Shown: piece by piece, positions 6,040 to 36,360 of the stretch
Position numbering within the stretch: the stretch's first letter is position 1
How the letters are laid out: each line of letters starts with the position of its first letter
Virus record (IMG/VR): IMGVR_UViG_2602041644_000008
Span: 1 to 37,809 of that record
Direction: 5' to 3' (one strand)
From: a virus
Lineage: Duplodnaviria; Heunggongvirae; Uroviricota; Caudoviricetes
Length of the DNA: 37,809 nt
Made by a program: the position numbers and the translations under genes
The notes under the pieces: model-generated
Told to the model about the DNA's origin: nothing
Databases searched by the model: none
The model's input: only the letters and a program-made list of their open reading frames with translations

Positions 6040-6056
6040 ATTACCTTTCAGGTAAT
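6040..6056. promoter_or_regulatory. Operator dyad ATTACCTTTCAGGTAAT
   Basis: Perfect 6-N5-6 inverted repeat. Lies between the divergent tailspike gene and the 6133 ORF. Confidence 0.6.
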
Positions 6057-6092
6057 TTGCAAAACGTGCTGGATAGCAAACAAATTATTTGC

Positions 6093-6112
6093 TACTGTAT
6101 AAATATACAGTT
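6093..6112. promoter_or_regulatory. LexA (SOS) box TACTGTATAAATATACAGTT
   Basis: Perfect CTGT-N8-ACAG with an AT-rich centre, 20 bp upstream of the 6133 start. Confidence 0.6.
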
Positions 6113-6132
6113 ATTGCATGGAGAAGATTAAG

Positions 6133-6390
6133 ATGCAGCAGTATCACTATCCACTGGAAGACGGATTTACCGAAAGGATTCACACGCCGGGAGGCGTCAG
6201 GTCACTGGTGGAGGGATCGCACTTGATGAAATTACTCCGGGATCTCGATAAGGATGGATTTAATGTCGATGGCCCACTTGCCGAACTGACTGCACTGATT
6301 AACTACGTCACCAGCTCACAGATGTCTATGCAGGATCTGCAAACACATCTCGACTATTGTGCCGAACAATTACGAAAACAAACCACATAA
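6133..6390 (+). CDS. Small protein (85 aa) paralogous to the C-terminal domain of the adjacent Bro-N protein; candidate SOS-induced antirepressor
   Basis: RBS GGAGAAG 7 nt upstream. Residues TPGGVRSLVEGSHLMKLLRDLDKDGFNVDGPLAELTALINYV..DLQTHLDY align with Bro residues SPSGVLGLTENSLLMNLLNQLQEDGHDVSGAAAELTTMFCYI..DIQTHAEY. LexA box upstream. Confidence 0.5.
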   Translation: MQQYHYPLEDGFTERIHTPGGVRSLVEGSHLMKLLRDLDKDGFNVDGPLAELTALINYVTSSQMSMQDLQTHLDYCAEQLRKQTT

Positions 6391-6412
6391 AGAAAAGGCC
6401 GCTAGAGCGGCC
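6391..6412 (-). terminator. Rho-independent terminator (mainly minus strand) after the 6412..7140 gene
   Basis: GGCCGC-TCTA-GCGGCC followed by TTTTCTTT on the minus strand. Confidence 0.5.
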
Positions 6413-7140
6413 TATCGTTTCGCTTTGTGCTCGTCCCAGCACGTTTTGCACCATGCCATTAAGCCATCCGCATTTTGATTATTAGGGTAAAAGCTGGTTC
6501 GTTTTCTGCGGACATTACAAATTGGGCACCACTTCATATGGCGTGTATTCTTTGGACCATCGAGACACCTTGCACACCACTTAGTCAATCCATCTGGATT
6601 TTTTGACGATTTCCTGAATTTTTCATATGGAAGGTTTATTCTGCATCGCAAGCACTGCTTGCTACCACTTGAAACTCTGTTAGCTGATTCTTCTTTTGGC
6701 GGCGATACAGAAGGTATTCTTGCTGGCTCTGATACTGCCTGAGGTGCTTTTTTAGATGACTGAGACGATATGTCATCACCAGGGAATCGTCCATGATATG
6801 CCGGACGCGTTGACACTCCAGGTGGAAGCTCTGCTGTAAATGGCTTTGGCTGAATCAGTTGCCTCTCTTTTGCTAACTCCTGCTGTTTATAATATGTCTG
6901 GATTACCGCACTATCATAAGCAGGAGGTGCGGAAATATTAGGCGCATTACCTCCAGTTTTTTGAAACTGAGTAGAGGTGTGTTCTATCACCTGTGTACGA
7001 TTAATCGTTATCTCCCCATCTTCGGTCTTTATCGTTTTGTTATGATTAACGACCGTACGATCAGAGATCTTAGTCTTGTTCTGGTTGATAACATAAATAA
7101 TCACCGCAACCACACCAACAACTATCCAGAAAACTTCCAT
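6412..7140 (-). CDS. Membrane-anchored protein with Pro/Ser-rich linker and C-terminal tandem CxxC zinc-ribbon repeats (unknown function)
   Basis: Strong RBS GAGGAAAAG. N-terminal TM FWIVVGVVAVIIYVI. C-terminus has two repeats: CLRCRINLPYEKFRKSSKNPDGLTKWCARC and CPICNVRRKRTSFYPNNQNADGLMAWCKTC. Low GC. Confidence 0.6.
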   Translation of the reverse strand: MEVFWIVVGVVAVIIYVINQNKTKISDRTVVNHNKTIKTEDGEITINRTQVIEHTSTQFQKTGGNAPNISAPPAYDSAVIQTYYKQQELAKERQLIQPKPFTAELPPGVSTRPAYHGRFPGDDISSQSSKKAPQAVSEPARIPSVSPPKEESANRVSSGSKQCLRCRINLPYEKFRKSSKNPDGLTKWCARCLDGPKNTRHMKWCPICNVRRKRTSFYPNNQNADGLMAWCKTCWDEHKAKR

Positions 7141-7159
7141 TGCTTTTCCTCACAATAAC

Positions 7160-7176
7160 ATTACCTTAAAGGTAAT
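7160..7176. promoter_or_regulatory. Operator dyad ATTACCTTAAAGGTAAT
   Basis: Perfect dyad 20 bp upstream of the 6412..7140 start, in a divergent regulatory region. Confidence 0.6.
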
Positions 7177-7252
7177 ATCTTGCTTTCAGGTGATCAAGCG
7201 TTAAACGCAATCAACCAAATAAGGTTGATTTTAATATTTCTTCGCGTTTATC

Positions 7253-7269
7253 ATTACCTTTTAGGTAAA
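7253..7269. promoter_or_regulatory. Operator dyad ATTACCTTTTAGGTAAA
   Basis: Second copy in the divergent region, 93 bp from the first. Adjacent inverted repeat TCAACC-N6-GGTTGA (7211-7228). Confidence 0.55.
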
Positions 7270-7535
7270 TTTACATCGCACTCCTCTTGTGCCATAGTAA
7301 TTGGGCACTGGCAAAATCCAGTGCCGGGATTGGTCTCCCGGATTACTACAGAGGCACATATGCCGCATAAGCGGTTTTTTTATGTGTAAAGCGCACCTAT
7401 TCTATGGTGAGCTGTGTGGGGGCACCGAAAGGTGCGCCGGGTTCCTTTGTAGCCGGTAAGACCAACTCTGCACAGTTCACCACCATCTGATTGGTCTCAG
7501 CGGTGGTGATTAACCTAACTACAAAGGTGATCGCC

Positions 7536-8228
7536 ATGAATACCAAACCTTCCATCTTTTCCTTTGAGTCATCCTGCCAGATCCGTATGTTCATGATTGA
7601 CGGAGAACCTTGGTTTGTCACCAAAGATGTGTGCAATGCTTTGAATATTGATGTTACACAAGCGAGAAAACTTGATAAAAAAGGCTGGAACAAAAAGGGG
7701 CTGTATTCAATACAGACCCCTGGTGGAATACAAGAACTATCCATCGTTTCAGAATCAGGTCTCTACATCCTTATTCTGCGTTGCAAAGAGGCAATGACAG
7801 AGGGAACGAGAGCGTTCAGATTTCTTGAATGGGTTACAGGTGAGGTTCTTCCTCAGATCCGCCGCACCGGAAGTTACATTAAAAACTCGCTCCCGCAGGA
7901 AGAACGCATAAAGATGGTTGCCGACCAGGTAGCCAACGCCACAGCATCAGCAATGATGCAGGCAATGAAGATAGAGAACAAAACCTACAGTGCCCCACTG
8001 AAGCCCGGCTACCGTAGCCTGATTCATTCTCCGTCTGGTGTTCTCGGCCTGACGGAGAACTCACTGCTGATGAATCTGCTGAACCAGTTACAGGAAGACG
8101 GGCACGATGTATCGGGCGCGGCGGCGGAGCTGACCACCATGTTCTGCTACATCGTCGGTGTGAGCAAATGCCTGCGTGATATCCAGACCCACGCGGAGTA
8201 CATCAACGACAAAGCAGGATTCTTCTGA
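7536..8228 (+). CDS. Bro-N domain protein (antirepressor-like, BRO family)
   Basis: Start moved to MNTKPS, which follows AAGGTG-N7-ATG. Bro-N signature FSFE...IRMFMIDGEPWFVTKDVCNALNI. C-terminal domain is paralogous to the 6133 ORF. Confidence 0.7.
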   Translation: MNTKPSIFSFESSCQIRMFMIDGEPWFVTKDVCNALNIDVTQARKLDKKGWNKKGLYSIQTPGGIQELSIVSESGLYILILRCKEAMTEGTRAFRFLEWVTGEVLPQIRRTGSYIKNSLPQEERIKMVADQVANATASAMMQAMKIENKTYSAPLKPGYRSLIHSPSGVLGLTENSLLMNLLNQLQEDGHDVSGAAAELTTMFCYIVGVSKCLRDIQTHAEYINDKAGFF

Positions 8229-8299
8229 CGGGCGGCGGCACAGGGATGTGCCTTTAAATAATTCTGTACAGATTGCAGACCGGGGGTGAATAGCGTACT

Positions 8300-8316
8300 A
8301 TTACCTTAAAGGTAAA
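8300..8316. promoter_or_regulatory. Operator dyad ATTACCTTAAAGGTAAA
   Basis: Immediately upstream of the promoter/RBS of the 8358 ORF. Confidence 0.55.
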
Positions 8317-8357
8317 CCTGTTTTTATTTTATACCTGTAACTTACCGGAGATTAAAG

Positions 8358-8684
8358 ATGACAAAACTTGGATTCGTGATGAGAGGTCCGGTAAGAAGCG
8401 GAACTCATGCAAAGCGTAGCAAGAGTCGTATTTTTACTGGTAAGGTTGTAGCACGTAAATCAGCTATTGGCTCGTTCAATAGTGAAAATGCGGCATTGCG
8501 CCATATTTTTATCAGCACAAAGCCAAGAGCATCCGCTGATGTGCATACAATGTCTATTCCTATCACAAAGAATATCAAGCGGATAAAAAAGCTCTCATCT
8601 GCAGAATCAAAAGAGATATCTTTCCGCCAGCTTAACTCATTAGAAACGCATATGAAGGAAGAGGAATTCGATGTTTTTGAGTGA
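8358..8684 (+). CDS. Basic 108-aa protein, first gene of a two-gene operon (putative antitoxin partner)
   Basis: RBS GGAGATTAAAG-ATG. Overlaps the downstream gene by 14 nt. No recognisable domain. Confidence 0.35.
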   Translation: MTKLGFVMRGPVRSGTHAKRSKSRIFTGKVVARKSAIGSFNSENAALRHIFISTKPRASADVHTMSIPITKNIKRIKKLSSAESKEISFRQLNSLETHMKEEEFDVFE

Positions 8685-9183
8685 GTATAGCGGGAAGGTT
8701 ATACCTACTGGTGAGTTTAAAACTGATGACTTTCTGATTTCGCTAAAAGATGCTTTTAAACAACACTGGCGTCATGGTCATCATCCTGATCTGGGAAAAG
8801 ATACTCTTTTTGAAAGACCAGACGAAGTATTAGGCTTCCATCTCAGAAAGGTTCATGTCAATATTGGTGAATATGCATCATATTCATACTCATGTACTGA
8901 ACAGTGTTGGGATGAGTGGTCATATGGATTGATTGATGAACAAGGAAATTACAGGCCAAAACCAACCAGTAACGCATATCTCATATATGCAGTCAATGAA
9001 ATAAGAGATGCAGCCTTACTAGCTTATTGGGACCCGCCCGCACACACCAAAGCTAACGCAAAAGTTTGGATGGATTCCGTATTGAATTTCACAAAATTAT
9101 TTCATGAACGAACTAATACAGCTCCACTTAGTAGAAATGTTTATCCGTGGGATTATTCGTACAAATCCAAAAAGCCTGCATAG
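8671..9183 (+). CDS. YafO-like toxin family protein (candidate type II TA toxin)
   Basis: RBS GGAAGAGGA. Segments HPDLGKDTLFERPDE, FHLRKVHVNIGE, NAYLIYAV and ALLAYWDPPAH parallel E. coli YafO motifs (LPDIFGRDALYDD, FERVAHIHLANE, AHLVYC, LLIAILKPEPH). Comparison is from memory only. Confidence 0.4.
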   Translation: MFLSEYSGKVIPTGEFKTDDFLISLKDAFKQHWRHGHHPDLGKDTLFERPDEVLGFHLRKVHVNIGEYASYSYSCTEQCWDEWSYGLIDEQGNYRPKPTSNAYLIYAVNEIRDAALLAYWDPPAHTKANAKVWMDSVLNFTKLFHERTNTAPLSRNVYPWDYSYKSKKPA

Positions 9184-9264
9184 TAGTTTTTTATGGACGA
9201 AACAAAAGTCAGTGCTACACTCATTGACGCCACATTGAGGTGGCTTATAGATGGAAATTTCACA

Positions 9265-9426
9265 ATGAAAAAAGCATTTGCTGCACTGTTCGTTTTGTTG
9301 TCTCTGGTAGCTTCAACTCAGGCCTTTGCCGGTCGTTGTCAGCACGACAGCGATACTGCCGCTGACGGCTCCCGCTGCGGTGGGCGTTCTGCGGATTCCC
9401 GCCCGGGCGGCGGTGGCATTCGTTAA
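9265..9426 (+). CDS. Small secreted peptide (signal peptide MKKAFAALFVLLSLVASTQAFA plus 31-aa Gly/Ser/Asp-rich part with 2 Cys)
   Basis: Internal ATG of tracked ORF 9193..9426. A 5-codon uORF (MEISQ, 9251..9268) with SD GAGGTGG overlaps this start as ATGA. Start site uncertain. Confidence 0.3.
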   Translation: MKKAFAALFVLLSLVASTQAFAGRCQHDSDTAADGSRCGGRSADSRPGGGGIR

Positions 9427-10307: not shown

Positions 10308-10308
10308 C

Positions 10309-25123: not shown

Positions 25124-25137
25124 TTCAATGACTCCGG

Positions 25138-25433: not shown

Positions 25434-25450
25434 ATTACCTTTCAGGTAAG
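25434..25450. promoter_or_regulatory. Operator dyad ATTACCTTTCAGGTAAG next to a TTGACA -35 box (25413-25418)
   Basis: Intergenic, between the start of the minus-strand late genes and the plus-strand leader/tRNA unit. Confidence 0.5.
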
Positions 25451-25479
25451 CAAAGAGTTCATTCCGGTTATTAACCTGA

Positions 25480-25770: not shown

Positions 25771-25771
25771 T

Positions 25772-25848
25772 GTGGCATTAGCTCAGTTGGACAGAGCAAC
25801 CGCCTTCTAAGCGGTTGGTTGCAGGTTCGAATCCTGCATGCCACGCCA
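25772..25848 (+). tRNA. tRNA-Arg (anticodon UCU)
   Basis: Cloverleaf: acceptor GTGGCAT/ATGCCAC, D-arm GCTC..GAGC, anticodon stem ACCGC/GCGGT with loop CTTCTAA, T-arm GCAGG-TTCGAAT-CCTGC, 3' CCA encoded. Resembles argU. Confidence 0.85.
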
Positions 25849-25891
25849 GAATCACGCCTAAGGACCGTGATGCCAGAAGTTCCAGGTGCTT

Positions 25892-25934
25892 GGCGGTGAC
25901 AGTTTCCCTTGAAGGACTATCACCGCCCTTTTTA
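25892..25934 (+). terminator. Rho-independent terminator after the tRNA
   Basis: GGCGGTGA...TCACCGCC followed by CTTTTT. Confidence 0.6.
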
Positions 25935-26011
25935 CAGCAGGACGCCATTGCGATGACTTCATGCTGTAAACCCGTACAGCCACGGAAGGCATAACTCATT
26001 GCTTCCAGTTC

Positions 26012-26038
26012 GCCCGGTTCGCCGGGCATTTTTTTAAG
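26012..26038 (+). terminator. Terminator-like hairpin 10 nt upstream of the Gp49-like start
   Basis: GCCCGG-TTCG-CCGGGC followed by ATTTTTTT, then RBS AAGGTGAG. Confidence 0.45.
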
Positions 26039-26046
26039 GTGAGATT

Positions 26047-26403
26047 ATGAACGACCAGCAAATCGAAAAAGAAATCGTTGAGAAAGGCAAAACCGCTCCG
26101 CGAGTTACGCCTCAATATATCGAAAGCATCATTCTTGAAGAGCATTTCTTTACTGCTTATGACGGCATTCGTGCTGCCAATATGGGCGTTGGCGATACGT
26201 GGACAGCGCATAAATCTACAGACCTCCTTACTTTCTGCGTACTGGTGCTGAAGAATGGCTTCACCGTCACCGGAGAGAGCGCATGTGCAAGCCCGGAAAA
26301 CTTTGATGCAGAAATTGGTCGGAAGATTGCCAGGCAGAATGCTGTAAACAAAATCTGGATGCTTGAAGGTTACTTGCTGAAGCAGAAGTTAAGCGAGCAA
26401 TAA
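26047..26403 (+). CDS. Gp49-like phage protein (unknown function)
   Basis: RBS AAGGTGAG. Sequence resembles the small Gp49 family common in enterobacterial prophages. Opposite strand to the flanking late genes. Confidence 0.5.
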   Translation: MNDQQIEKEIVEKGKTAPRVTPQYIESIILEEHFFTAYDGIRAANMGVGDTWTAHKSTDLLTFCVLVLKNGFTVTGESACASPENFDAEIGRKIARQNAVNKIWMLEGYLLKQKLSEQ

Positions 26404-26406
26404 CAC

Positions 26407-26420
26407 CGTGACATGTCACA
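26407..26420. repeat. Palindrome CGTGACATGTCACA (copy 1), at the 3' flank of terL and the Gp49-like gene
   Basis: Perfect 12-bp palindrome GTGACATGTCAC. Identical 14-mer recurs at 28673-28686. Confidence 0.6.
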
Positions 26421-26423
26421 AAC

Positions 26424-26451
26424 AGCCAGCCTATGAGCTGGCTTTGTTTTA
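26424..26451. terminator. Terminator AGCCAGC-CTATGA-GCTGGCT followed by TTTGTTTT
   Basis: 7-bp stem plus T-tract on the plus strand and an A-tract on the other side (weakly bidirectional). Separates terL and the Gp49-like gene. Confidence 0.55.
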
Positions 26452-26493
26452 TCCTCACCAGAGGATATCAACGACATTATCCCCACCAGCGGA

Positions 26494-27969: not shown

Positions 27970-28563
27970 TGATTACCATCCTGACGTTCTTTGAGTCGCT
28001 TCCTGGCTGCCGCTATGCGATCAGCAATTGTCACATTCACATTAACATCCAGGCGTTCTTTGAACGCGTTGACATCAACATGCTTACCAATCAGCTCAAG
28101 GTTCTTCACCTTGTCAGGCCATTTAATTTTTTTGAGGATTGTCTCTATCGAATCCTCGTTCATGTTCATGATGGTCGATGACAGATCAAAGCCACTAAGC
28201 GTAGTGCGCCAGATTTTCGGCCACTCACGGATTGGTTTAAGGCTCCCATCGTCGTTGAGGATGTCGATCACGTCCATCTGGTCGATCTCCACCAGGCGCA
28301 TGAGAACGTAATCAGCACTGACGCGCATTCGTTTGTTGCGCTCCTCCATCAACTCGGCAATCCGTTTTTGAATGCGTTCATCGCGCATCATGACACTGGC
28401 TTTAACTGCCGCTGTATTTGGGGAGAATCCTGCGTTAATCGCTGCCTGAGTTTGGTTTTCAGGCGTTTTGATGTATGACTGGCAATAAGCCTCCTGCATT
28501 GTTGTTAGTGGCTTAAATTGCGTTGATTTGCGTTTATAGGTTTTAGGTTCAGCAGGCATCATA
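27966..28563 (-). CDS. Terminase small subunit
   Basis: Start moved to MMPAEPK; the tracked N-terminal 26 codons translate the operator/terminator repeats. HTH-like N-terminus and basic C-terminus. Directly upstream of terL. Confidence 0.65.
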
Positions 28564-28595
28564 ACCACCGTGGTAATAGTTACCGTTGTGGTAAT
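28561..28595. promoter_or_regulatory. Two adjacent operator-like dyads (ATAACCACCGTGGTAAT and GTTACCGTTGTGGTAAT) over the terS start region
   Basis: 6-N5-6 dyads matching the genome-wide motif. Located between the upstream terminator and the terS ATG. Confidence 0.5.
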
Positions 28596-28602
28596 AGTAC
28601 CA

Positions 28603-28631
28603 TGCAAAATAAAGCCGCCATAGTTGGCGGC
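28603..28631 (-). terminator. Rho-independent terminator upstream of terS (end of early/nin transcription or tR'-like element)
   Basis: Minus strand GCCGCC-AACTAT-GGCGGC followed by TTTATTTTG. Confidence 0.55.
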
Positions 28632-28672
28632 AGTATTCAAAATCCATCAAATTCATCATGCATAATCTACTC

Positions 28673-28686
28673 GTGACATGTCACAC
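28673..28686. repeat. Palindrome CGTGACATGTCACA (copy 2), upstream of terS
   Basis: Identical 14-mer to 26407-26420. Overlaps the stop codon of the 28681..29028 gene. Confidence 0.6.
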
Positions 28687-29028
28687 TATTAATTTCGTTT
28701 CATGCCAGCCTTTAGTCACCCAGCATTGCGAGTCACCATTACACGGGCATGAATTAACGGGAACTCTCTCGCCGCACTTACCGCAAAGTTTTCTGCTGAT
28801 CGATTTTATACGCCCGCGCACACGTGCATCATCCTGGCGGATCAGCAGCGCGATGTACTCGGCCATTTCATAGGGATCGCGACCAGGGCGCCGGGCGGCG
28901 CAGTTCCGCGCCAGCATTTCCTGCTCCTGCTTATCCAGCACCAGTTCAATTTTGCGCTCACCGGCGGCGGACTGCCGAGCGCGCTGCGCGGCTTTGCGTT
29001 CTGCGGGGGATTTAGCCACGAATCGCAC
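28681..29028 (-). CDS. Basic protein with C-terminal Cys cluster (CGKCGERVPVNSCPCNGDSQC); candidate zinc-binding late-gene regulator
   Basis: Arg/Ala-rich N-terminus and putative zinc finger. Immediately upstream of the palindrome/terminator/terS region, by analogy to Q/Ogr-type positioning. Confidence 0.4.
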   Translation of the reverse strand: MRFVAKSPAERKAAQRARQSAAGERKIELVLDKQEQEMLARNCAARRPGRDPYEMAEYIALLIRQDDARVRGRIKSISRKLCGKCGERVPVNSCPCNGDSQCWVTKGWHETKLIV

Positions 29029-29134
29029 TCCACGCCAGATTGATTAATGACTCCCAGGCAATATAAACCCGGATACCAGCAGCCAGGCCGAAACCAATCA
29101 CCATGGCATAAAGCAGAGCGTTGCACTTGTTCAT
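29015..29134 (-). CDS. Tiny hydrophobic peptide (39 aa, MNKCNALLYAMVIGFGLAAGIRVYIAWESLINLAWSAIRG)
   Basis: Untracked short ORF with one TM helix, coupled (ATGA-type overlap) to the upstream gene end. Speculative. Confidence 0.2.
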
Positions 29135-29904
29135 TACTTCACCTCCTGCGGTGGTTCCGGTAGCGGCATCCAGTGGGTTGCTTGCTCAATACCATTACCC
29201 GGCTTAATCGTTGCATCTCCGCGCCGAAAGGTGCTTCCGGTATAGCGTGCGGAGCATATTAGCGGTTCAACCAGAGAGCTATCGAAATTCACCGAAATAA
29301 GCACGTTCTGGCCCTTTTCAGGCATTCGCTCACTACAGCTTATCCAACCATCCGGAGTTACCGGAGTTGGTCCATCGAATTCGGGCATGTCAGGACCTTT
29401 TCTGATAGCTTTAGCCAGCTCCAGCGGGTCATCGTAAAGCCAGTCGCCAGTTTGTGGGTGATTTGCTTCTGCAAGCTGCGCAGCCCATTCAAGACCATCT
29501 TTTTGACCTTGGAGATAATCAAGTGGCAACTCTTCATGATTACTTGCAGGTTCGGCACCATGAAGCATGGCGGCGCGGCAGGCGTTCCAGCCTCTCACCT
29601 CTGCAATAGCGGCAACAGCATCAACCGCGTACATGCTAAGAGGATTAGGCATTGGTTTTTCTTCCGGTACTACTGGCACTGGAGGGGTGGCGTAGAGTGG
29701 AACTCCTCCCCCTCCACCAGAAAATTCATTGCGAGCGTTATACTCACGACCATCTGCGTCATCACGCATCCACGCCACCGCTTCTGCTTCCAGCGATGCC
29801 AGTGCGATTTCATAAGCCCGACGCTCAATATTGTCTCGGACGTCCAGGCTGCCTATACGCTCTCTGATTTCTTTAATCAGTTCTTTGTCGGTTAAAGTGG
29901 TCAT
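29134..29904 (-). CDS. DUF551-domain protein
   Basis: C-terminal DGWISCSERMPEKGQNVLI...ATHWMPLPEPP resembles the DUF551 module frequent in lambdoid early regions. Confidence 0.5.
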   Translation of the reverse strand: MTTLTDKELIKEIRERIGSLDVRDNIERRAYEIALASLEAEAVAWMRDDADGREYNARNEFSGGGGGVPLYATPPVPVVPEEKPMPNPLSMYAVDAVAAIAEVRGWNACRAAMLHGAEPASNHEELPLDYLQGQKDGLEWAAQLAEANHPQTGDWLYDDPLELAKAIRKGPDMPEFDGPTPVTPDGWISCSERMPEKGQNVLISVNFDSSLVEPLICSARYTGSTFRRGDATIKPGNGIEQATHWMPLPEPPQEVK

Positions 29905-30434
29905 GCTGCGTTTCCTTCTTTCTTATTAACAATTACACCGTCATATATTTCATTAAGGTGTCCTCTTAGCTCCATGCGCCTTAATGCAGATAACATGTAA
30001 TCGCATTCAACCTGCTTATTCCCAGTAAATGGCTTATCGTCAGGATTACCCCAACAGCAATTACCCCTGGGCCATCCATGTACTTTCCGTACTCTTCCGT
30101 TAACAACGTGAAGTAATCCCCAGCCGGGAGGTAAATCCTCAACTGAAATAATTTCCGGCTCACTAATAAAGAATCGCCAGTCGCCCATGCCAAGTGAGGG
30201 ATTTTTACGGAAACGCTTTTTTCTATCTGCCAACAAGTCAGCACGAGAACACTTCGCCTCTATCAGGCATGATGCTGAATTTCTGAATCCCATAGCATCT
30301 GGCTGTTCTCCGGTACTGGTTACAGCAACAAAGCGGTCATGAAAGCAAACCTTGAACCCGTTGCGCTTAAGGAACTTGTACGCAATCTGACAGAGTTCGT
30401 GGTGTGTTAACGCCATATCACTTTCCTTTCCCAT
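29901..30434 (-). CDS. PD-(D/E)XK nuclease-like protein (VRR-NUC-like motif)
   Basis: GEQPDAMGFRNSASCLIEAKCSRADL fits the G-PD...IE-K VRR-NUC pattern. Confidence 0.4.
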   Translation of the reverse strand: MGKESDMALTHHELCQIAYKFLKRNGFKVCFHDRFVAVTSTGEQPDAMGFRNSASCLIEAKCSRADLLADRKKRFRKNPSLGMGDWRFFISEPEIISVEDLPPGWGLLHVVNGRVRKVHGWPRGNCCWGNPDDKPFTGNKQVECDYMLSALRRMELRGHLNEIYDGVIVNKKEGNAA

Positions 30435-30452
30435 GTTGTCATGTGTTAGTCC

Positions 30453-30716
30453 TTATCCTGCTGTGCTTTCAACTGATGAGGGGAATAAAATCTTTTCATC
30501 AAATCCGGCATTCATATCATGGACAGCAACACACCAATCCATCGACGAACGATTATCAAGAGCCTCCATGATTTCATCCATGCGGCGCAGGTCATACAGG
30601 TAAATGCTTTTATCGCCAATGGTGTAAAAACCAATTTTTTTCGGTGATGGGCAGCGATCAAGAACGTCCTGTAATTCGCTCAACCATGCTTGTTCTTTTT
30701 TTGTCAAAGTTGCCAT
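30453..30716 (-). CDS. Hypothetical protein (87 aa)
   Basis: ORF in the nin-like region with appropriate spacing. No domain recognised. Confidence 0.4.
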   Translation of the reverse strand: MATLTKKEQAWLSELQDVLDRCPSPKKIGFYTIGDKSIYLYDLRRMDEIMEALDNRSSMDWCVAVHDMNAGFDEKILFPSSVESTAG

Positions 30717-30717
30717 A

Positions 30718-31212
30718 TCACTCTCCTTTGATGCGAATGCCAGTGGTACTCATTCTCCTGATTTCCCAGAGCACACGAGGAACACCACCGTTTCCGACCG
30801 GATCGCGCTTACTCCGCATGGCGACGCTTGATTCCGCCCAGCTTTTTCTTGGAGGAAGCTCTTTCACACGAACAAAACCAGCTGCGCGAAGAGATGCTCC
30901 TGATTCATCTGCCTGGGTGTACGTAATACAACGTTGATAACCCATAGCCTTTGCTGCCCGCCAGACAGCACCATAAAGCGCGCTGTTAGCGTTGCGTTCT
31001 CCTGTGGTACATGTGCGATTTACTTCAAGCGTTAATCCATCGTCCAAATGTCGTGCAACAGGTCGACCAGCTGTCGCCACACCTATCAATTCTCCGGCAT
31101 TATTTCTCAGACCAATGCTGAATTTATGCCCCACTGGTGGTTTATTGTGTCGGTGGTGCTGTGCGATAAATTCCTGCGCCGCTTTCAGCGTTATAGGTGA
31201 AATGACCATCAC
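30718..31212 (-). CDS. GNAT-fold acetyltransferase-like protein (tentative)
   Basis: IGLRNNAGELIGVATAG and ERNANSALYGAVWRAAKAMGYQRCITYT resemble GNAT motifs. Weak call. Confidence 0.3.
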   Translation of the reverse strand: MMVISPITLKAAQEFIAQHHRHNKPPVGHKFSIGLRNNAGELIGVATAGRPVARHLDDGLTLEVNRTCTTGERNANSALYGAVWRAAKAMGYQRCITYTQADESGASLRAAGFVRVKELPPRKSWAESSVAMRSKRDPVGNGGVPRVLWEIRRMSTTGIRIKGE

Positions 31213-31901
31213 TCAGACTCCTCCTTGATGCCAGCGGCGCGGGAATCATTCCATCGCTTTACTTCTTCACGAATTACGTCAATGCATTCTTTCGAATCCA
31301 TTAGGTAATCTTCATCAAAAAGACGTTCCTGTTCGTTTTCTATCGCAACAATGATTGCTTCAACTAATTTTTGTGCCTGAGAATCACTTTCTAACTCTGC
31401 AATGCGCTTCTCTGCGGCTTCCAACTTCTCGCGCATATCGTCAACGTACTCGACCAGAGAACCGCCAGCAGGAATTTCGCACTCCTCGACCAGTTGGAAG
31501 TAGATATCAGCTGCGGCCCGTGTGTTGCTATGCCTAGCGTCGCCCATCTCACCTTCACGAAGAGCATCGCGTTCGGCGGTAAGATTGGCTATTTTGCTGT
31601 CTTTGCCTTCCAGCTCAACGCGCAGCTTCCCTACCGTTAGCGCAATATCCTCGTTCTCCTGATCGCGGGATTTGATGTATTGCTGGTTCCTTTCCCGTTC
31701 ATCCAGTAGTGCCAAAGCAACCTTTGGATTAAAGGCAGCAATAAATTCAGCGTTGTTTTTCAGAACGTGTTGCGCAATGGCCTGACCACTTAGTCGGACC
31801 TTATAACCACGTGCGCCACGGTGTGGTTTATATGAGTCCCAGTCTCCCCACGTTGCTTTTTCTGCCTTTTCACGCAGTGCCTGATAGTTAATGTTGGTCA
31901 T
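31209..31901 (-). CDS. Ead/Ea22-like protein
   Basis: N-terminus MTNINYQALREKAEKATWGDW is typical of the Ead/Ea22 family. Coiled-coil middle. Confidence 0.55.
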   Translation of the reverse strand: MTNINYQALREKAEKATWGDWDSYKPHRGARGYKVRLSGQAIAQHVLKNNAEFIAAFNPKVALALLDERERNQQYIKSRDQENEDIALTVGKLRVELEGKDSKIANLTAERDALREGEMGDARHSNTRAAADIYFQLVEECEIPAGGSLVEYVDDMREKLEAAEKRIAELESDSQAQKLVEAIIVAIENEQERLFDEDYLMDSKECIDVIREEVKRWNDSRAAGIKEESE

Positions 31902-31902
31902 A

Positions 31903-32202
31903 TCACATCACCCTGAAGCCGTTGCATTTACGTAAAAAATCGCAGATATAGCCCTTCATTTTTTCGTGCCAATCTCGATCATTCCCATTGCACCAACCAT
32001 CAGGTGGAGTCCAGTTTTCTATCAGAGCAGCCATTTTCTTTGCTTTCGCCGGAGTAGCTGTTGCGGTATCGCAGTAATGACGAGTGTCAACCAACGTATC
32101 CATACCATCGATATCAAGTACGCAAAACCATGTGTGATTCGGAATTCCTACAGGTGGTATTTGTTGCCCACGTCGACGTTTATCAATAAGATATACACTC
32201 AC
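31903..32202 (-). CDS. Hypothetical protein (99 aa)
   Basis: ORF with coupled start/stop. Cys/His/Trp-rich. Confidence 0.4.
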   Translation of the reverse strand: MSVYLIDKRRRGQQIPPVGIPNHTWFCVLDIDGMDTLVDTRHYCDTATATPAKAKKMAALIENWTPPDGWCNGNDRDWHEKMKGYICDFLRKCNGFRVM

Positions 32203-32768
32203 TGGTTACCTCCTTTGCGAAGCTCTGCGGCGATATCTTCGAGAACGCCATCAGAGAATGAGCGGTCAAAATCGCCTTCCGGCGCATTAGCCATAAACTC
32301 AGTAGAGGTAAGAATCATCCGGGCAATATCCGCGGCGTTCTTCGCAGTATCATCAATAAAACCAGCTTCCCAGGCAGCCAGCATTCTGTTCGCCACAAAG
32401 TAAGCGCCCTCCTTGCGTGCTTCAGTCTTCACTTCAGCTAGGAAAGCATCGGTGGCTGGAATGGGCTTTTGTGGTGATATAGCAATGCGAATTGTCTCAA
32501 GGTCTGGAGCTGTTTCCGCTGTTGGCACCTTGATATAACCCGTCTGCACCCCATTCATGATGAACCTGCGACGGTCATCACATATCGCCTTAAGCCCCGC
32601 ATTCTCCGCTGCCAGCGCATTAGCACGCACCAGTTGCACTTCCAGTTGCGTTGCCAAATCGCTGATCAGCTTTGTCACACTGCGCATATCAACGGCACCA
32701 CATTCTGCTTTCAGTTCCGAAGCCATCTCATGCCCGGCGGCAACTAACCCTTTGATATTACTTTCCAT
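32199..32768 (-). CDS. Hypothetical protein (189 aa)
   Basis: ORF in the early-operon continuation. No domain recognised. Confidence 0.4.
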   Translation of the reverse strand: MESNIKGLVAAGHEMASELKAECGAVDMRSVTKLISDLATQLEVQLVRANALAAENAGLKAICDDRRRFIMNGVQTGYIKVPTAETAPDLETIRIAISPQKPIPATDAFLAEVKTEARKEGAYFVANRMLAAWEAGFIDDTAKNAADIARMILTSTEFMANAPEGDFDRSFSDGVLEDIAAELRKGGNQ

Positions 32769-32829
32769 CTTTACCCTCGCTTATCCACATAACTTATTGA
32801 TTACACTGATAACTAAAAAGATCGTCGAT

Positions 32830-33174
32830 TCAGAACTCTTCGATGTTCCAGCCACCACCTGCTTTCTTTGGCTTAACCGTTACCCCGATGATTCGGAACG
32901 GATACTGATCTGCGGCGACTTTGGTTTTCACCCTGGCGTCGTCGGTCCAGAAACCTTTCACTTCGTGCAGTTCCATCTCGCCGGTGGCGAGCATCACAGC
33001 AAAATCGGGCGTATAGAACGTGTTGTCAGCTAACCGCAACTTGATACCCTCGAATCGATACCAGGCGATTTCCCCTGCACGTTTACGCTGCTCAAGGTGC
33101 TGGCAATACGCAGATTCTGTTTTGTTCATCTGGCCTGTTTTGAGTCGACCAAGAGCCTGCATCTGTTTTCTCAT
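32830..33174 (-). CDS. DUF1064-like protein
   Basis: About 114 aa. NKTESAY..LE.RK.AGEI..YRFE...L.......YTPDF.V...GE.E.HEVKGFWTDDARVK.KVAA fits the DUF1064 pattern found in lambdoid phages. Start is overlapped by an operator. Confidence 0.5.
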   Translation of the reverse strand: MRKQMQALGRLKTGQMNKTESAYCQHLEQRKRAGEIAWYRFEGIKLRLADNTFYTPDFAVMLATGEMELHEVKGFWTDDARVKTKVAADQYPFRIIGVTVKPKKAGGGWNIEEF

Positions 33175-33176
33175 GA

Positions 33177-33193
33177 TTTACCCATGAGGTAAT
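33177..33193. promoter_or_regulatory. Operator dyad TTTACCCATGAGGTAAT
   Basis: Abuts the start codon of the 32830..33174 gene. Confidence 0.5.
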
Positions 33194-33238
33194 TAAAAAC
33201 CACATAAGACACGAAATCAATAGATCTTAGAACATTTT

Positions 33239-33255
33239 ATTACCTAGCAGGTAAT
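33239..33255. promoter_or_regulatory. Operator dyad ATTACCTAGCAGGTAAT
   Basis: Perfect dyad between the post-P terminator and the DUF1064 gene. Confidence 0.55.
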
Positions 33256-33264
33256 TATCAAGAC

Positions 33265-33287
33265 GTAAAAAAATGCGCTATCGCGCT
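33265..33287 (-). terminator. Weak terminator after the P-like gene (GCGC-GATA-GCGC followed by ATTTTTTT)
   Basis: Short GC stem with a 7-T tract on the minus strand. Confidence 0.35.
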
Positions 33288-33291
33288 GGTA

Positions 33292-34092
33292 TTACTTGAT
33301 AAATCCTGCCGCCTTTCCCCGCCTGTATTCCTCCATCAGCCACTGCGCCGGTGTTATTCCCCCCAGGGTAGCGGCGTTAGGCATACACCCGAAACTTCGC
33401 CCTGGTGGATGGTAAACGCCTCTCCCTGTGTCCGGAGGCGTACTCATGGGTTCTGGCTTTGCCTGTATGCTGATCACCGGATCGGGTATCTGCTGTCCGG
33501 AAGCCACCTTTTTCGCCCAATCATCAAGCAGCCTGCGCGCGTGTTTCTCAACCTCAATCTCGCTAAGCTGGCGCTGATACATTGCACGGCGGGTATCACA
33601 TACGACCCAGTACATAACCGGATGCCGCCACGGGAATCTTTCGGGACCACCAGGATATAAACTTTTTTCCTTGCTGTACCGGTGAAACTCCGCCATCACA
33701 TCGTCAATGGTGACGCCAAGAACCATCTTGCTGTCTTTACACCACTTGATAAATTGCCCTGGCGACGGCCAGAACGGAGATTCACTGGCGCGGGCGTGGC
33801 GCATACCAGCAGAAACCTGTTCACGGGTTCGGATCCCCCCTTCGGCAAACGCAGCAATCCACTGCTGTTTTGCAGCAACTTCCTGCTCTGGCGTCTTCAG
33901 GTTGGTTACCACTGCCGCCGGAAACAGTTGTTTCAACTGTTTGAAAAGGGCATCAACAAGCCTCTCTGCTGACATGTTCACTACGTTGTCATTGTTGGTG
34001 TACTGATGCTCATAACCTGACATGCGAGAAAGGGCTTCTCCGTCACGGTTTTGTATCGCGGTAAAAACGTTGTTCACAAGAAATCCTCCCAT
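33292..34092 (-). CDS. Replication protein P-like (lambda P family, DnaB helicase loader)
   Basis: EQEVAAKQQWIAAFAEGGIRTREQVSAGMRHARASESPFWPSPGQFIKWCK aligns closely with lambda P QNEVNEIRRQWVLAFRENGITTMEQVNAGMRVARRQNRPFLPSPGQFVAWCR. Confidence 0.75.
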   Translation of the reverse strand: MGGFLVNNVFTAIQNRDGEALSRMSGYEHQYTNNDNVVNMSAERLVDALFKQLKQLFPAAVVTNLKTPEQEVAAKQQWIAAFAEGGIRTREQVSAGMRHARASESPFWPSPGQFIKWCKDSKMVLGVTIDDVMAEFHRYSKEKSLYPGGPERFPWRHPVMYWVVCDTRRAMYQRQLSEIEVEKHARRLLDDWAKKVASGQQIPDPVISIQAKPEPMSTPPDTGRGVYHPPGRSFGCMPNAATLGGITPAQWLMEEYRRGKAAGFIK

Positions 34093-34889
34093 GCTTCAGG
34101 GCTGTTCCAGTGCGGAACGTTGTTATCAGGTAATGTTGATTGCTTCTGTCTGCTAATCTGCAGCCGCCTTGCCAGCTTCTGCTCCCACTGTGCCTGATGG
34201 TATGCCCTACCCTCAGCCATCCAGTAAATTCTGAACTCTGCAAGTTCCTGTGCCGTTGGCAGACTGTCCAGGTAGATCCCCTGCAATGAGCTTTTCCGAA
34301 GAAAGTCATCTGATGGCTGCCATTGTTCATGCATGACAAATTTGCCTAATTGCCCTGGCCCACCAGGAGGAACAAAGTTATTCATCACGGCGTTGTTTGC
34401 GCCGGGGTCATGATGCACAGAATCCCCGTTTTTTGTCCTGCTCTCCCTCTCTTGGTTAAATGACTGGTTATATGACTGGTTCTGGATCCCGTTTTTGGGA
34501 TCATTCAACATCCCGTTTTTGGGATCATTCAACATCCCGTTTTTGGGTATATTCCCGTTTTCGGGAACATTACCGTTTTCGGGTTCATTACCCCCTTCCC
34601 GGTTGCCTTTAATGTTCCCGTTTTTGGTTATATTAAGAGAGAAAACCCGCACTCTTTTCGTCGCTCCCTTTCTCTCTCCGGTATCTGAAATAAGCCCCAT
34701 TTTCATGAGCGATATAAGCCCGGCCTGCACGGTTTTTTTATTCAGGCAAGTGTCTTTAACGAGGCGTTCTATGCTGGGGTAGCAGAGGTTATATTCATCG
34801 GCTCTGTCAGCCATCGAGAGCAGTATGAGCTTTAATGACGAGCTACCTGGATCTGTCTCCCAGGCCCAATCTGTTGCATGTCTGCTCAT
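34074..34889 (-). CDS. Replication initiator (lambda O-like: N-terminal HTH DNA-binding domain, Asn/Gly-rich repeat linker, C-terminal domain)
   Basis: RBS GGAG-N8-ATG. Peptide repeats (ENGNVPENGNIPKNGMLNDPKNGMLNDPKNGIQ) encoded by iteron DNA inside the gene, as in lambda O. Position is immediately upstream of the P-like gene. Confidence 0.6.
   Translation of the reverse strand: MSRHATDWAWETDPGSSSLKLILLSMADRADEYNLCYPSIERLVKDTCLNKKTVQAGLISLMKMGLISDTGERKGATKRVRVFSLNITKNGNIKGNREGGNEPENGNVPENGNIPKNGMLNDPKNGMLNDPKNGIQNQSYNQSFNQERESRTKNGDSVHHDPGANNAVMNNFVPPGGPGQLGKFVMHEQWQPSDDFLRKSSLQGIYLDSLPTAQELAEFRIYWMAEGRAYHQAQWEQKLARRLQISRQKQSTLPDNNVPHWNSPEAWEDFL
34476..34630. repeat. Origin of replication: about 6 iterons (ATCCCGTTTTTGGGAT-type dyads) plus adjacent AT-rich stretch, inside the O-like gene
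   Basis: GATCCCGTTTTTGGGATC x2 (34476, 34500), ATCCCGTTTTTGGGTAT, TTCCCGTTTTCGGGAAC, TTACCGTTTTCGGGTTC, TTCCCGTTTTTGGTTAT, then ATATTAAGAGAGAAAA. Also direct repeat ATGACTGGTT x2 (34451-34472). Confidence 0.65.
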
Positions 34890-34904
34890 GATTAATCTCC
34901 GCTA

Positions 34905-35174
34905 TCAGCTTGAATGTTGTGGGGAGGAATTAATCATGATCTGCTTAATCTCTGCCCTGATACGACGGTTTGATTCCATGGTGCACTCAACACAGTGTCC
35001 GTTGTAAACCCAGCGTTCACTGTCATGTCCGTGCTTACATGGTTTTCCGGTGTAGTAGCGTTTAAGTCCGCGCTTTGCGGCATCAATACGTGTAATGATT
35101 TCCATGGTAAGCCCTGTTATTAGTATTGGGATTACGGTCATTTTGTGCTGACACAAAAAAAAGATCAACCACAT
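34905..35174 (-). CDS. Small Cys/His-rich (zinc-ribbon-like) protein, CII-position gene; start uncertain (M1, M12 or M24)
   Basis: KPCKHGHDSERWVYNGHCVEC motif. First gene after the cro terminator and an operator. Confidence 0.4.
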   Translation of the reverse strand: MWLIFFLCQHKMTVIPILITGLTMEIITRIDAAKRGLKRYYTGKPCKHGHDSERWVYNGHCVECTMESNRRIRAEIKQIMINSSPQHSS

Positions 35175-35184
35175 TTGGTTATTT

Positions 35185-35201
35185 ATTACCTTTGAGGTAC
35201 G
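35185..35201. promoter_or_regulatory. Operator dyad ATTACCTTTGAGGTACG
   Basis: Between the cro terminator and the zinc-ribbon gene. Confidence 0.5.
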
Positions 35202-35210
35202 AATAGATAT

Positions 35211-35233
35211 GAAAAGACCGCCGGGTGGCGGTC
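35211..35233 (-). terminator. Terminator after the cro-like gene (tR1-like)
   Basis: Minus strand GACCGCC-ACCC-GGCGGTC followed by TTTTC. Confidence 0.5.
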
Positions 35234-35255
35234 TACAGAGGGTTGTAGCTGGATA

Positions 35256-35486
35256 TCATGAGTAGAAGAAGTATGCCAGTTCTGCTTTTGAGTGCAGCCA
35301 TTGTCTTGATTTACAGGCTTTAAAAAGCCCATTCATCAATACCTTACCTGGCATTTTGCGCTTACCTGTTAAGTGAGTCTGGATATAGTGACTCGTCGTT
35401 CCGGCTTCCTGTGCGAAGGCTTCACGCTCATCCGGAGTAAGTGCAAGCCAGTGCTTTTTGAAATCGAAATGTCCGTTATCGCTCAT
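35256..35486 (-). CDS. Cro/CII-like HTH regulator (first gene of the early operon divergent from the repressor)
   Basis: HTH segment FAQEAGTTSHYIQTHLTG resembles the CII-type HTH. Position equals cro. Confidence 0.55.
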   Translation of the reverse strand: MSDNGHFDFKKHWLALTPDEREAFAQEAGTTSHYIQTHLTGKRKMPGKVLMNGLFKACKSRQWLHSKAELAYFFYS

Positions 35487-35521
35487 AGCTATTGCCTGAT
35501 ATTTATTTCAGATAATAAATA

Positions 35522-35538
35522 TTCACCTATAAGGTAAC
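35522..35538. promoter_or_regulatory. Operator O1 TTCACCTATAAGGTAAC (cro-proximal)
   Basis: One of three tandem dyads in the 154-bp cI-cro intergenic region. Confidence 0.6.
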
Positions 35539-35552
35539 AAAAATCAAGGATA

Positions 35553-35569
35553 GTTACCCATGAGGTGCA
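35553..35569. promoter_or_regulatory. Operator O2 GTTACCCATGAGGTGCA
   Basis: Centre 31 bp from O1. Confidence 0.55.
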
Positions 35570-35586
35570 TTTACCTGTTGGGTAAT
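35570..35586. promoter_or_regulatory. Operator O3 TTTACCTGTTGGGTAAT (repressor-proximal)
   Basis: Abuts O2. Lambda OR-like tripartite arrangement. Confidence 0.55.
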
Positions 35587-35640
35587 ATTGCTTTAAATTG
35601 AATCATCTTCTGATTCAGATATGAGGCGATTTTCCAGAAA

Positions 35641-36225
35641 ATGAAAAGTATCCAGGACGTCCGCAGGCAAAATCTCAACGACTTGATCGACCGTGAATTC
35701 AATGGTGTTCAGACGCGGATGGCTGAAAAACTTGGAACTCAGGCAAATCTGGTAAACCGCTGGGCTCTTGGCAAGAAGGTTATCGGCGACCAGGTTGCGC
35801 GAAAAATTGAAGCTGCCGCCAATAAACCCCGTAACTGGCTTGATATCGATCGCTCGCTTTCTCAGGAAGGTTTTCAGCCTGTCGGACCAAGCGACATTGG
35901 TCAACTGGCGGCTCACAACCTGGAACGCTGGATGAGCGAAAGCCGCGACCTTTCAACGCAGGGAAAACTTCACCGCGCATCCGGCGTCGCCCAGGTAACA
36001 ATCAGCCGCCTGTTAAACAATGAGGTCAGCGTTTCCATTTCCACCCTGGAGAATGTTGCATCCGCATTTGGGCGTCACGGATATGAATTACTGATTCACC
36101 CGCACGACCCCGCGACTATCAACTATGACCGCTCGCGCTACGCATTGTTACCTGAAACAGAGAAGGCAAAGATCGAAAGTTACATTGAATTTGTCATCAA
36201 CCAGAACGAAAAAAACAAACAATAA
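35641..36225 (+). CDS. Prophage repressor, two XRE-type HTH domains, no S24/LexA-like peptidase domain
   Basis: HTH1 TRMAEKLGTQANLVNRWALGKK. HTH2 LHRASGVAQVTISRLLNNEVSVSISTLENVASAFG. No Ser/Lys autocleavage module. Divergent from cro with three operators. Confidence 0.65.
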   Translation: MKSIQDVRRQNLNDLIDREFNGVQTRMAEKLGTQANLVNRWALGKKVIGDQVARKIEAAANKPRNWLDIDRSLSQEGFQPVGPSDIGQLAAHNLERWMSESRDLSTQGKLHRASGVAQVTISRLLNNEVSVSISTLENVASAFGRHGYELLIHPHDPATINYDRSRYALLPETEKAKIESYIEFVINQNEKNKQ

Positions 36226-36247
36226 AATCATATTTTTCAGTAAGTAA

Positions 36248-36270
36248 GCCGCCTTCTGGCGGCTTTTTTA
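36248..36270 (+). terminator. Rho-independent terminator after the repressor gene
   Basis: GCCGCC-TTCT-GGCGGC followed by TTTTTT. Confidence 0.65.
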
Positions 36271-36281
36271 TTGCCTATTTG

Positions 36282-36298
36282 ATTACCTAACGGGTAAT
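36282..36298. promoter_or_regulatory. Operator dyad ATTACCTAACGGGTAAT
   Basis: Perfect dyad upstream of the promoter for the recombination operon. Confidence 0.55.
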
Positions 36299-36316
36299 TT
36301 TTTTAACTCATATCTA

Positions 36317-36360
36317 TTGACATCAAACCAGATACGCATAATTATTACCTCAACGGTAAC
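36317..36360 (+). promoter_or_regulatory. Early promoter (TTGACA-17-AATTAT) with operator ATTACCTCAACGGTAAC (36344..36360) over the -10/+1 region
   Basis: Consensus -35 hexamer. Dyad overlaps the -10/start region. Drives the plus-strand genes from 36379 onward (PL-like). Confidence 0.5.

Follow-up and report, generated by a model that had tools for sequence, protein, structure and literature searches.

The probable operator network described here has its closest counterpart in the type phage epsilon15, whose GenBank record (AY150271.2 / NC_004775.2) carries seven features entered as 'protein_bind, repressor, lysogeny': three at the early-left promoter (PL), and single ones before terS, before gp3 (head operon), in the gap separating gp19 from the tailspike gene, and behind the replication genes. 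All seven are exact copies of the dyad ATTACC-N5-GGTAAT. The same dyad recurs in the DNA analyzed in this study, a stretch of 37,809 nucleotides from a virus of the Caudoviricetes (IMG/VR record IMGVR_UViG_2602041644_000008, positions 1 to 37,809; hereafter "the window", meaning the whole stretch), where its copies occupy positions syntenic to the annotated epsilon15 sites. Based on the evidence below, these dyads are very probably operators of the primary prophage repressor Rep, which is encoded in the window, belongs to the SPC32H/epsilon15 repressor family, and is not expected to be cleaved through RecA. The dyad network is thus already known, being present in the public annotation of the type phage. 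A full-text literature search, with the primary epsilon15 and SPC32H papers outside its coverage, returned no text describing the sites. Kropinski's 2007 description of the epsilon15 genome is reported to give the consensus ATTACCWDWWNGGTAAT, and Salmonella phage SPC32H reportedly uses a Rep–Ant–LexA switch, credited to Kim & Ryu 2013 and Kim 2016 (PDB 5D50, 5D4Z).

The window and epsilon15 share an identical consensus, the same operator positions, the 62-bp and 18-bp pairings, and a repressor of the same family. The two differ in that their repressors share just 42% identity over the full length (53% in the DNA-binding domain), in that the window has neither a third operator at PL nor one at the lysis cassette, and in that it carries additional sites (7160, 7253, and 8300) in an accessory region of its own. 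With SPC32H the window has in common a full-length Rep homologue, an Ant protein 88% identical, a LexA box before ant, and the same operators and spacings, but it adds a Bro-N-type antirepressor behind isrK and C4 RNAs, whereas in the SPC32H annotation examined ant is the one antirepressor gene listed. Judged by its sequence, the system is a member of the Uetakevirus Rep–operator–Ant group, all of whose sequence-level defining features it displays, including the Uetakevirus genome backbone (podovirus structural genes and guaA att site).

At the sequence level, the window comprises the left junction and most of an epsilon15/phiV10-type (Uetakevirus) podovirus prophage inserted at the guaA att site. 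Positions 25000–37809 match phiv142-3, PAS61, TL-2011b, and ZX5 at ~97% DNA identity, with the aligned part covering 56–69% of that stretch, while phiV10 aligns over 42% of it; the orientation is the reverse of the phiV10 and epsilon15 records. The sequence ATTGAGTGGGAATGATT, published as the att core of this phage group (PMC9782041), lies at 1164–1180. It is preceded by two apparently host genes, one glycine-zipper lipoprotein-like and the other a DUF5384 gene, and the stretch 1–1180 is the left prophage junction.

Distribution of the dyad in the window and its relatives

Exact copies of ATTACCNNNNNGGTAAT (ATTACC-N5-GGTAAT) occur four times in the window against 0.00 expected, and 16 copies are found at up to two mismatches against 1.26 expected. 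With at most one mismatch, all 12 copies fall in the 3,036 bp (8.3%) of the prophage judged non-coding and none in the 33.6 kb of coding sequence. Shuffling the intergenic DNA while keeping its composition, including its lower G+C, yielded 0.0095 sites at the same stringency, and the enrichment of the motif is ~1000-fold. An earlier sequence-only reading of this DNA had placed the repeat exclusively in intergenic regions, had proposed a count against shuffled sequence as a check, and had taken an equal frequency in coding or unrelated Escherichia coli DNA as grounds for rejection. The counts above bear out the intergenic restriction, and 50 kb of the E. coli K-12 chromosome likewise contained no site at ≤1 mismatch.

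The enrichment is specific to the N5 spacer at this stringency: N5 gave the 12 copies, and each of the other spacers from N2 to N9 gave 0–1. At two mismatches N5 was not enriched over other spacers, and we thus regard the two-mismatch matches in coding sequence (2721, 13719, and 30045) as chance. A weight matrix built independently from the epsilon15 sites alone and then scored on the window retrieved 13 sites at ≥12.9 bits (Table 1), against 0.12 expected in simulated sequence, with the next score at 7.5 bits. Two further copies are weak by this measure, at 28561 (6.8 bits) and 35553/4 (4.7 bits, four mismatches); each stands 16–18 bp from a strong site, and their counterpart positions in related phages are strong operators. 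The 14–15 copies counted previously therefore amount to 13 strong sites and two weak ones. Within the half-site, the TTACC positions are ~97% invariant and the spacer is variable. Among the 71 deviations from the consensus counted in 82 sites of six genomes, 69 abolish the dyad symmetry and two keep it, indicating that sequence is conserved rather than pairing.

The same enrichment was seen in phiV10, phiv142-3, SPC32H, Tyrion, and Klebsiella phage Kp4865-1. When dyads were searched de novo in five Uetakevirus genomes, TTACC-N5-GGTAA was the commonest 5-mer dyad (spacers 0–12), with 8–11 exact copies in each. The epsilon15 record itself has no repressor site annotated between the repressor gene and gp39; three good unannotated dyads are present there (33340, 33357, and 33387, within 33340–33403), with the 17 + 30 bp spacing of SPC32H and Kp4865-1.

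Evidence for the repressor as ligand, and the alternatives

The Rep protein of the window is 100% identical to the repressors of phiV10, ZX5, and phiv142-3, and a phmmer search against the PDB matched residues 1–190 to SPC32H Rep (5D50_A, E=4e-42). Aligned to the latter, it consists of an N-terminal helix-turn-helix (HTH) DNA-binding domain, a middle HTH-like dimerization domain, and a C-terminal domain for tetramerization and Ant binding. Pfam returned only HTH matches (HTH_3) and no Peptidase_S24 domain, and the C-terminus aligns with the oligomerization domains of SPC32H Rep. The N-terminal domain is the best-conserved part (the phiV10 type is 53–55% identical there to the epsilon15 and Klebsiella types, compared to 42–45% overall), which fits a motif common to all three types. 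In ZX5, whose repressor is identical, over-expression of the repressor cut endolysin and holin transcripts by 99.99% and 99.97%, respectively (PMC9782041), a result with which the switch model given below is consistent.

Additional evidence comes from outgroup repressors of unrelated phages, distant homologues having been sought by tblastn against phage records. The cI protein of Pseudomonas phage PseuP_224 is 39% identical in the DNA-binding domain and has an S24 C-terminus; its gene is accompanied by ATTACC-N4-GGTAAT dyads, three just upstream and two just downstream. No convincing copy was found away from cI in the 31.7 kb of PseuP_224 examined, where a two-mismatch match at 17265 is at noise level. 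In Hafnia phage yong2, whose cI has a different recognition helix, TGTACC-N5-GGTACA dyads stand on both sides of cI. Since the dyads of both phages flank their cI, the Rep-type DNA-binding domain family goes, as far as these sequences show, with nnTACC dyads, and the genome-wide spread is special to Uetakeviruses. Moraxella phage Mcat9 was considered as a third outgroup and set aside, its intergenic TTAnC-N5-GnTAA-like repeats being too degenerate to serve as evidence. Taken together, Rep homology, the epsilon15 annotation, and the outgroups make a single repressor acting on dispersed sites, as the sequence-only reading had suggested, the best explanation; its description of the accessory sites as fronting "moron" genes does not hold for two of the four (see below).

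The placement of the sites relative to promoters, all of which are sigma-70 consensus predictions, points in the same direction for about half of the sites, which overlap predicted promoter elements. Three predicted promoters (PL, the nin-like region after the replication genes, and 7225–7254) are aligned with their operators in the same way: the −10 hexamer ends in the two bases with which ATTACC begins. A predicted −10 is overlapped in this fixed register by three to four sites, and two more (35522 and 33239) lie in predicted promoter spacers. Inter-site distances (Table 1) are kept across six genomes even though the DNA between the sites has diverged.

Several observations nevertheless weigh against Rep as the ligand of the whole set. 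The epsilon15 repressor-site features are an annotator's prediction and not an experimental result. No convincing sigma-70 promoter was found at terS (best candidate ≤7/12), 35185, 7160, or 6040; promoter occlusion can thus be proposed only where promoters are predicted, and the idea of a sigma-70 promoter at every site was dropped. The lysis cassette has no strong site upstream in the window, whereas epsilon15 (24703) and phiV10 (24691) have one. Finally, the Cro-like protein could share the same sites or compete for them.

On balance, we find it somewhat unlikely that the 76-aa Cro-like protein binds the dyads as well as Rep, or replaces it at sites far from the immunity region. It would then turn down early and accessory transcription in lytic growth, in the way that lambda Cro shares OR and OL with CI. 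A divergent cro-like gene does stand beside the three-site operator region (OR) in a lambdoid-like layout, its product matches a 'transcriptional repressor' family (phrog_35), and from sequence alone Rep and the Cro-like protein cannot be told apart as the ligand of any particular site. However, the half-site goes with the Rep-type DNA-binding domain in outgroups that may have unrelated cro genes, and repressor over-expression alone silenced late genes in ZX5 (PMC9782041). A Cro-like ligand is also compatible with, rather than exclusive of, binding by Rep.

A second question is whether some Rep sites work as transcriptional roadblocks. The stoperators of phage L5, recognized by gp71, are asymmetric 13-mers that lie mostly inside transcribed regions and in one orientation relative to transcription. 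The window resembles L5 in having many repressor sites outside the immunity region, and its terS pair and 35185 follow terminators and could stop polymerase. Unlike stoperators, however, its sites are palindromic and all intergenic, with about half over predicted promoter elements; leaving aside the terS pair and 35185, predicted hexamers or spacers of promoters are overlapped by at least five sites. Given this symmetry and the location of most sites on or beside predicted promoters, the dyads are probably not a stoperator set of the L5 type. Rep bound to the terS pair or to 35185 could either act as a roadblock or shut off a promoter that depends on an activator. The broader proposal, that the terS pair and the post-cro site are roadblocks insulating the late and replication operons from read-through in the lysogen and that operators also double as homology patches for cassette exchange, seems to us unlikely. 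If true, the terS pair and 35185 would be a palindromic, enterobacterial counterpart of stoperators, and new genes would arrive already wired to Rep.

The homology-patch part can be considered by itself: operators may double as patches for swapping accessory cassettes between related phages, possibly via the phage RecE/RecT, which would explain new cassettes arriving already under Rep control. Homology with phiv142-3 ends exactly at the last base of operator 8300, with unrelated genes downstream (window 8225–8420 versus phiv142-3 2857–3052), and BLAST block edges coincide with operator edges at 25449, 36343, and 7245–7264. However, wherever the true junction lies, a BLAST alignment will run on to the far edge of an operator that is conserved, and the 10 of 45 intergenic block edges located ≤8 bp from an operator do not differ significantly from the 14.8% expected by space, the edges not being independent. 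With one exact case (8300) and no significant enrichment overall, operators as mosaic junctions in general were rejected, and we consider a homology-patch function quite improbable.

It is very unlikely that another regulator, either a host protein or a phage protein such as the phrog_536 regulator encoded at 28681–29028, binds the dispersed dyads while Rep is restricted to OR and PL. In favor of such a regulator, several sites have no recognizable promoter and the phage encodes further predicted regulators, but the OR/PL and dispersed sites share the same motif and the same N5 spacer, related dyads adjoin cI in unrelated phages that have a homologous domain and different hosts (Pseudomonas and Hafnia), and the motif is absent from the 50 kb of K-12 chromosome. 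To our knowledge, no E. coli regulator has this consensus. Lastly, a role of the dyads as nucleic-acid structures (RNA hairpins, attenuators, or cruciforms) is hardly credible: they are inverted repeats and several stand beside terminators or in 5' leaders, but the stem is only 6 bp, there is no consistent T-run, the TTACC positions are near-invariant, and departures from the consensus almost always destroy complementarity.

A putative antirepressor-controlled switch

Rep has been described as a tetramer acting on palindromic sites, in which the DNA-binding pairs are formed by domains from different dimers, and which is disabled by tetrameric Ant (PMC9638917). Its N-terminal domain binds DNA, its middle domain dimerizes, and its C-terminal domain tetramerizes, with the two middle-domain pairs ~100 Å apart (PMC9986798). 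By extension, each N-terminal domain would read one TTACC half-site and a pair of domains would cover one dyad. A tetramer with two such pairs may then hold two operators at once, which would account both for the conserved 62-bp pairs at the PL and nin-region promoters and for the directly adjoining sites found at OR and upstream of terS. In a lysogen, Rep would occupy the −10 and start of the PL, nin-region, and isrK–C4–ant promoters and the spacer of the cro promoter, with further occupancy where the terS and head operons begin and behind the cro terminator. Nearly every transcription unit would thereby have its own block, the lysis cassette being the exception in this window.

Induction is probably by antirepression and not by repressor cleavage, since a LexA box directly precedes the SPC32H-like ant gene. 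This box (6093–6112) is the sole match in the window, with 0.00 expected. If the switch works as homology to SPC32H suggests, DNA damage would lead LexA to leave the box and Ant to be made; Ant would then strip Rep from DNA and release all units together, including the Bro-type antirepressor, whose derepressed operon may reinforce the switch.

This arrangement recalls phage P1, in which one primary repressor, C1, serves many operators dispersed round the genome, and in which the antirepressor operon of immI (c4-icd-ant) opens with C4, an antisense RNA, and is in turn controlled from a repressor operator. The P1 operators are asymmetric 17-mers (ATTGCTCTAATAAATTT-type), and C1 is not known to be of the Cro/C1-type HTH family. 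The window shares with P1 the dispersed operators and a C4 RNA upstream of an antirepressor gene, behind a promoter with a primary-repressor operator. Unlike those of P1, however, its dyads are symmetric and of different sequence, Rep matches HTH_3, and the virion and genome types differ. The tandem of isrK, C4, and a Bro-N/Ant gene is a P1 immI-like module inside a podovirus prophage. Compared to lambda CI, the window likewise has divergent rep and cro genes around three operators and a second cluster at the early-left promoter, but Rep has no S24 peptidase domain, induction would proceed by antirepressor, and operators are also present at late and accessory units. The outgroup cI proteins with the homologous DNA-binding domain (PseuP_224 and yong2) do belong to this classical, S24-carrying class.

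Overall, these data provide a coherent regulatory map for a common E. coli/Salmonella prophage family that includes phiV10-type O157 reporter phages and relatives from outbreak strains of Shiga toxin-producing E. coli: a single antirepressor-controlled repressor, one operator or operator pair per transcription unit, and two antirepressor modules (LexA and isrK/C4). In Uetakevirus prophages, the motif can serve well as a marker when transcription units and immunity groups are annotated. A prediction of the map is that phages of the phiV10 and epsilon15 types may show cross-immunity even though their repressors are just 42% identical, and the fixed 62-bp operator pairs lend themselves to a simple test of DNA bridging by tetrameric Rep. 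Practical uses are modest, and no new kind of system is opened.

Individual predicted operators and neighboring features

Table 1. Predicted operators, associated genes and RNAs, and inter-site distances. Positions refer to the window; bit scores of operators are from weight matrices.
Feature	Position	Strand	Remarks
Operator between tail-fiber gene and ant, divergent region	6040..6056		Exact match
LexA box TACTGTATAAATATACAGTT	6093..6112		Directly upstream of ant; two mismatches to 20-bp consensus
ant, small antirepressor	6118..6390	+	90 aa; 88% identical to SPC32H Ant; phrog_450
Operator of divergent 242-aa gene (6412–7140, − strand)	7160..7176		Exact match
Operator of isrK–C4–Bro/Ant operon	7253..7269		22–24 bits
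isrK-type small RNA with own terminator	7305..7381	+	Rfam RF01394, 74.7 bits (gathering score 50)
C4 antisense RNA (P1/P7 immI type)	7400..7487	+	Rfam RF01695, 78.2 bits (gathering score 45)
Second antirepressor, Bro-N and Ant-like C-terminal domain	7536..8228	+	Pfam Bro-N, E=2e-13
Operator of three-gene accessory operon 8358–9426	8300..8316		19–25 bits
Operator between head-gene operon (p06/portal, − strand) and tRNA-Arg (+ strand)	25434..25450		14.5–19.5 bits
Second, weaker terS-upstream operator	28561..28577		1 mismatch; 6.8–12.7 bits by matrix
terS-upstream operator	28579..28595		18–19 bits; between terminator and terS start
Proximal operator after replication genes (nin-like region)	33177..33193		Ends 2 bp before DUF1064 gene ATG
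Distal operator, nin-like region	33239..33255		Exact match; 62 bp from proximal 33177
Operator after cro terminator, upstream of p42/replication genes	35185..35201		12.1–12.9 bits
Cro-like 76-aa regulator	35256..35486	−	phrog_35 'transcriptional repressor', E=2.6e-12; divergent from rep
OR operator nearest cro, TTCACCTATAAGGTAAC	35522..35538		14.4–14.9 bits
Middle OR site, degenerate, GTTACCCATGAGGTGCA	35553..35569		4.7 bits
OR operator nearest rep, TTTACCTGTTGGGTAAT	35570..35586		20–21 bits
Rep, prophage repressor	35641..36225	+	194 aa; full-length SPC32H Rep homologue
PL distal operator	36282..36298		Exact match; directly after rep terminator
PL proximal operator	36344..36360		Over −10 and transcription start of early-left promoter
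13 strong sites (epsilon15 matrix)	6040, 7160, 7253, 8300, 25434, 28579, 33177, 33239, 35185, 35522, 35570, 36282, 36344		
Distance, PL promoter pair			62 bp (63 in Kp4865-1); centre to centre, distal upstream of proximal; 62 bp in 5 of 6 genomes
Distance, pair after replication genes			62 bp
Distance, terS pair			18 bp
Distances within OR			17 + 30 bp (window 16/17 + 31/32)
Distance, OR to site after cro			~340 bp
Distance, PL to OR			705–724 bp

In the immunity region, the Cro-like gene is syntenic with phiV10 p41 and epsilon15 gp39. Among the three tandem copies previously noted between rep and cro, the two outer ones are strong and the middle one is a degenerate site with four mismatches, which in SPC32H, epsilon15, and Kp4865-1 aligns with a strong operator spaced 17 bp from the one next to rep. 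The site nearest cro lies in the spacer of the predicted cro promoter (TTGTTA-17-TATTAT, − strand, 35540..35512), and the one nearest rep overlaps the −35 of a candidate rep promoter (TTTACC-17-TTAAAT, 8/12). The second operator cluster, ~710 bp from OR, is associated with the predicted PL promoter (TTGACA-17-AATTAT, 10/12; 36317..36345). The site at 35185 has two mismatches and follows the cro terminator (35234..35215), and its counterpart sits 337–341 bp from OR in all relatives.

In the nin-like region, the proximal operator is associated with a predicted promoter, TTGATT-17-TTTAAT (9/12), in an architecture conserved in SPC32H, Kp4865-1, and epsilon15. A second predicted promoter, TTGATA-16-TAAAAT (10/12; − strand, 33261..33234), has its spacer filled by the distal operator. 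Near terS, where a terminator is present at 28631..28614, the likely ATG at 28559 is preceded by the two operators at distances of 1 and 19 bp, and an 18-bp pair likewise precedes terS in epsilon15 (positions 11/29) and phiV10 (86/104). The longest terS open reading frame (27966–28640) begins at TTG 28640, as in the phiV10 annotation, and would engulf both operators and the terminator. The start is more likely ATG 28559, which is the one annotated in epsilon15, SPC32H, Tyrion, and phiv142-3. The sites reported over the terS start would then both be upstream of it, and they would match that description only if TTG 28640 is used. Operator 25434 is syntenic with the annotated epsilon15 repressor site 2931–2947 and overlaps a predicted + strand promoter pointing to tRNA-Arg (25408–25441; perfect −35 TTGACA, 17-bp spacer, weak −10 TACCTT). 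This tRNA-Arg(tct) gene (25772–25848, +) is on the strand opposite to the late genes, and in the phiv142-3 record the tRNA is annotated on the other strand.

In the accessory region, operator 6040 is syntenic with the annotated epsilon15 repressor site 19895–19911, and the SPC32H arrangement is alike. Operator 7160 precedes the divergent 242-aa gene, 19 bp before its ATG, and is 93 bp from 7253, which overlaps the −10 of the predicted promoter TTGATT-18-TATCAT (9/12; 7225..7254). The Bro/Ant protein downstream matches phrog_130 'anti-repressor Ant', and phrog_450 over residues 147–228. At 8300, a weak TTGCAG-17-TACTAT (7/12, read by eye) has the same −10 register. The "moron island" label given earlier is thus wrong for two of the four sites, as 6040 fronts the LexA-controlled ant and the tail-fiber gene and 7253 fronts the isrK–C4–Bro/Ant operon. 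Repressor control of antirepressors makes sense and is not evidence for silenced lysogenic-conversion genes. Within the operon of operator 8300, the 170-aa product of 8671–9183 has a sub-threshold match to the YafO toxin (19.7 bits; cutoff 25), and the gene is preceded by one encoding 108 aa; the two may be a toxin–antitoxin-like pair under Rep control.

Two other repeats were observed. A perfect 12-bp palindrome, GTGACATGTCAC, is present at 26408–26419 and 28673–28684 of the window and in every Uetakevirus examined at the same module boundaries: after terL/p03, just ahead of the terS terminator, and where the structural operon ends (epsilon15 2142, 19517, and 39612; two more Uetakevirus records at 2262 and 19493, and at 12697, 15252, and 24674). 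None is found in the 50 kb of K-12, and BLAST homology blocks end at this palindrome (26407, 28671/2, and 9451/5). In addition, two tandem copies of TGGGATCATTCAACATCCCGTTTTTGGG, 24 bp apart (34496–34539, +), lie inside the DnaT-like replication gene 34074–34889; they surfaced as 'terminator-like' matches and might be origin iterons.

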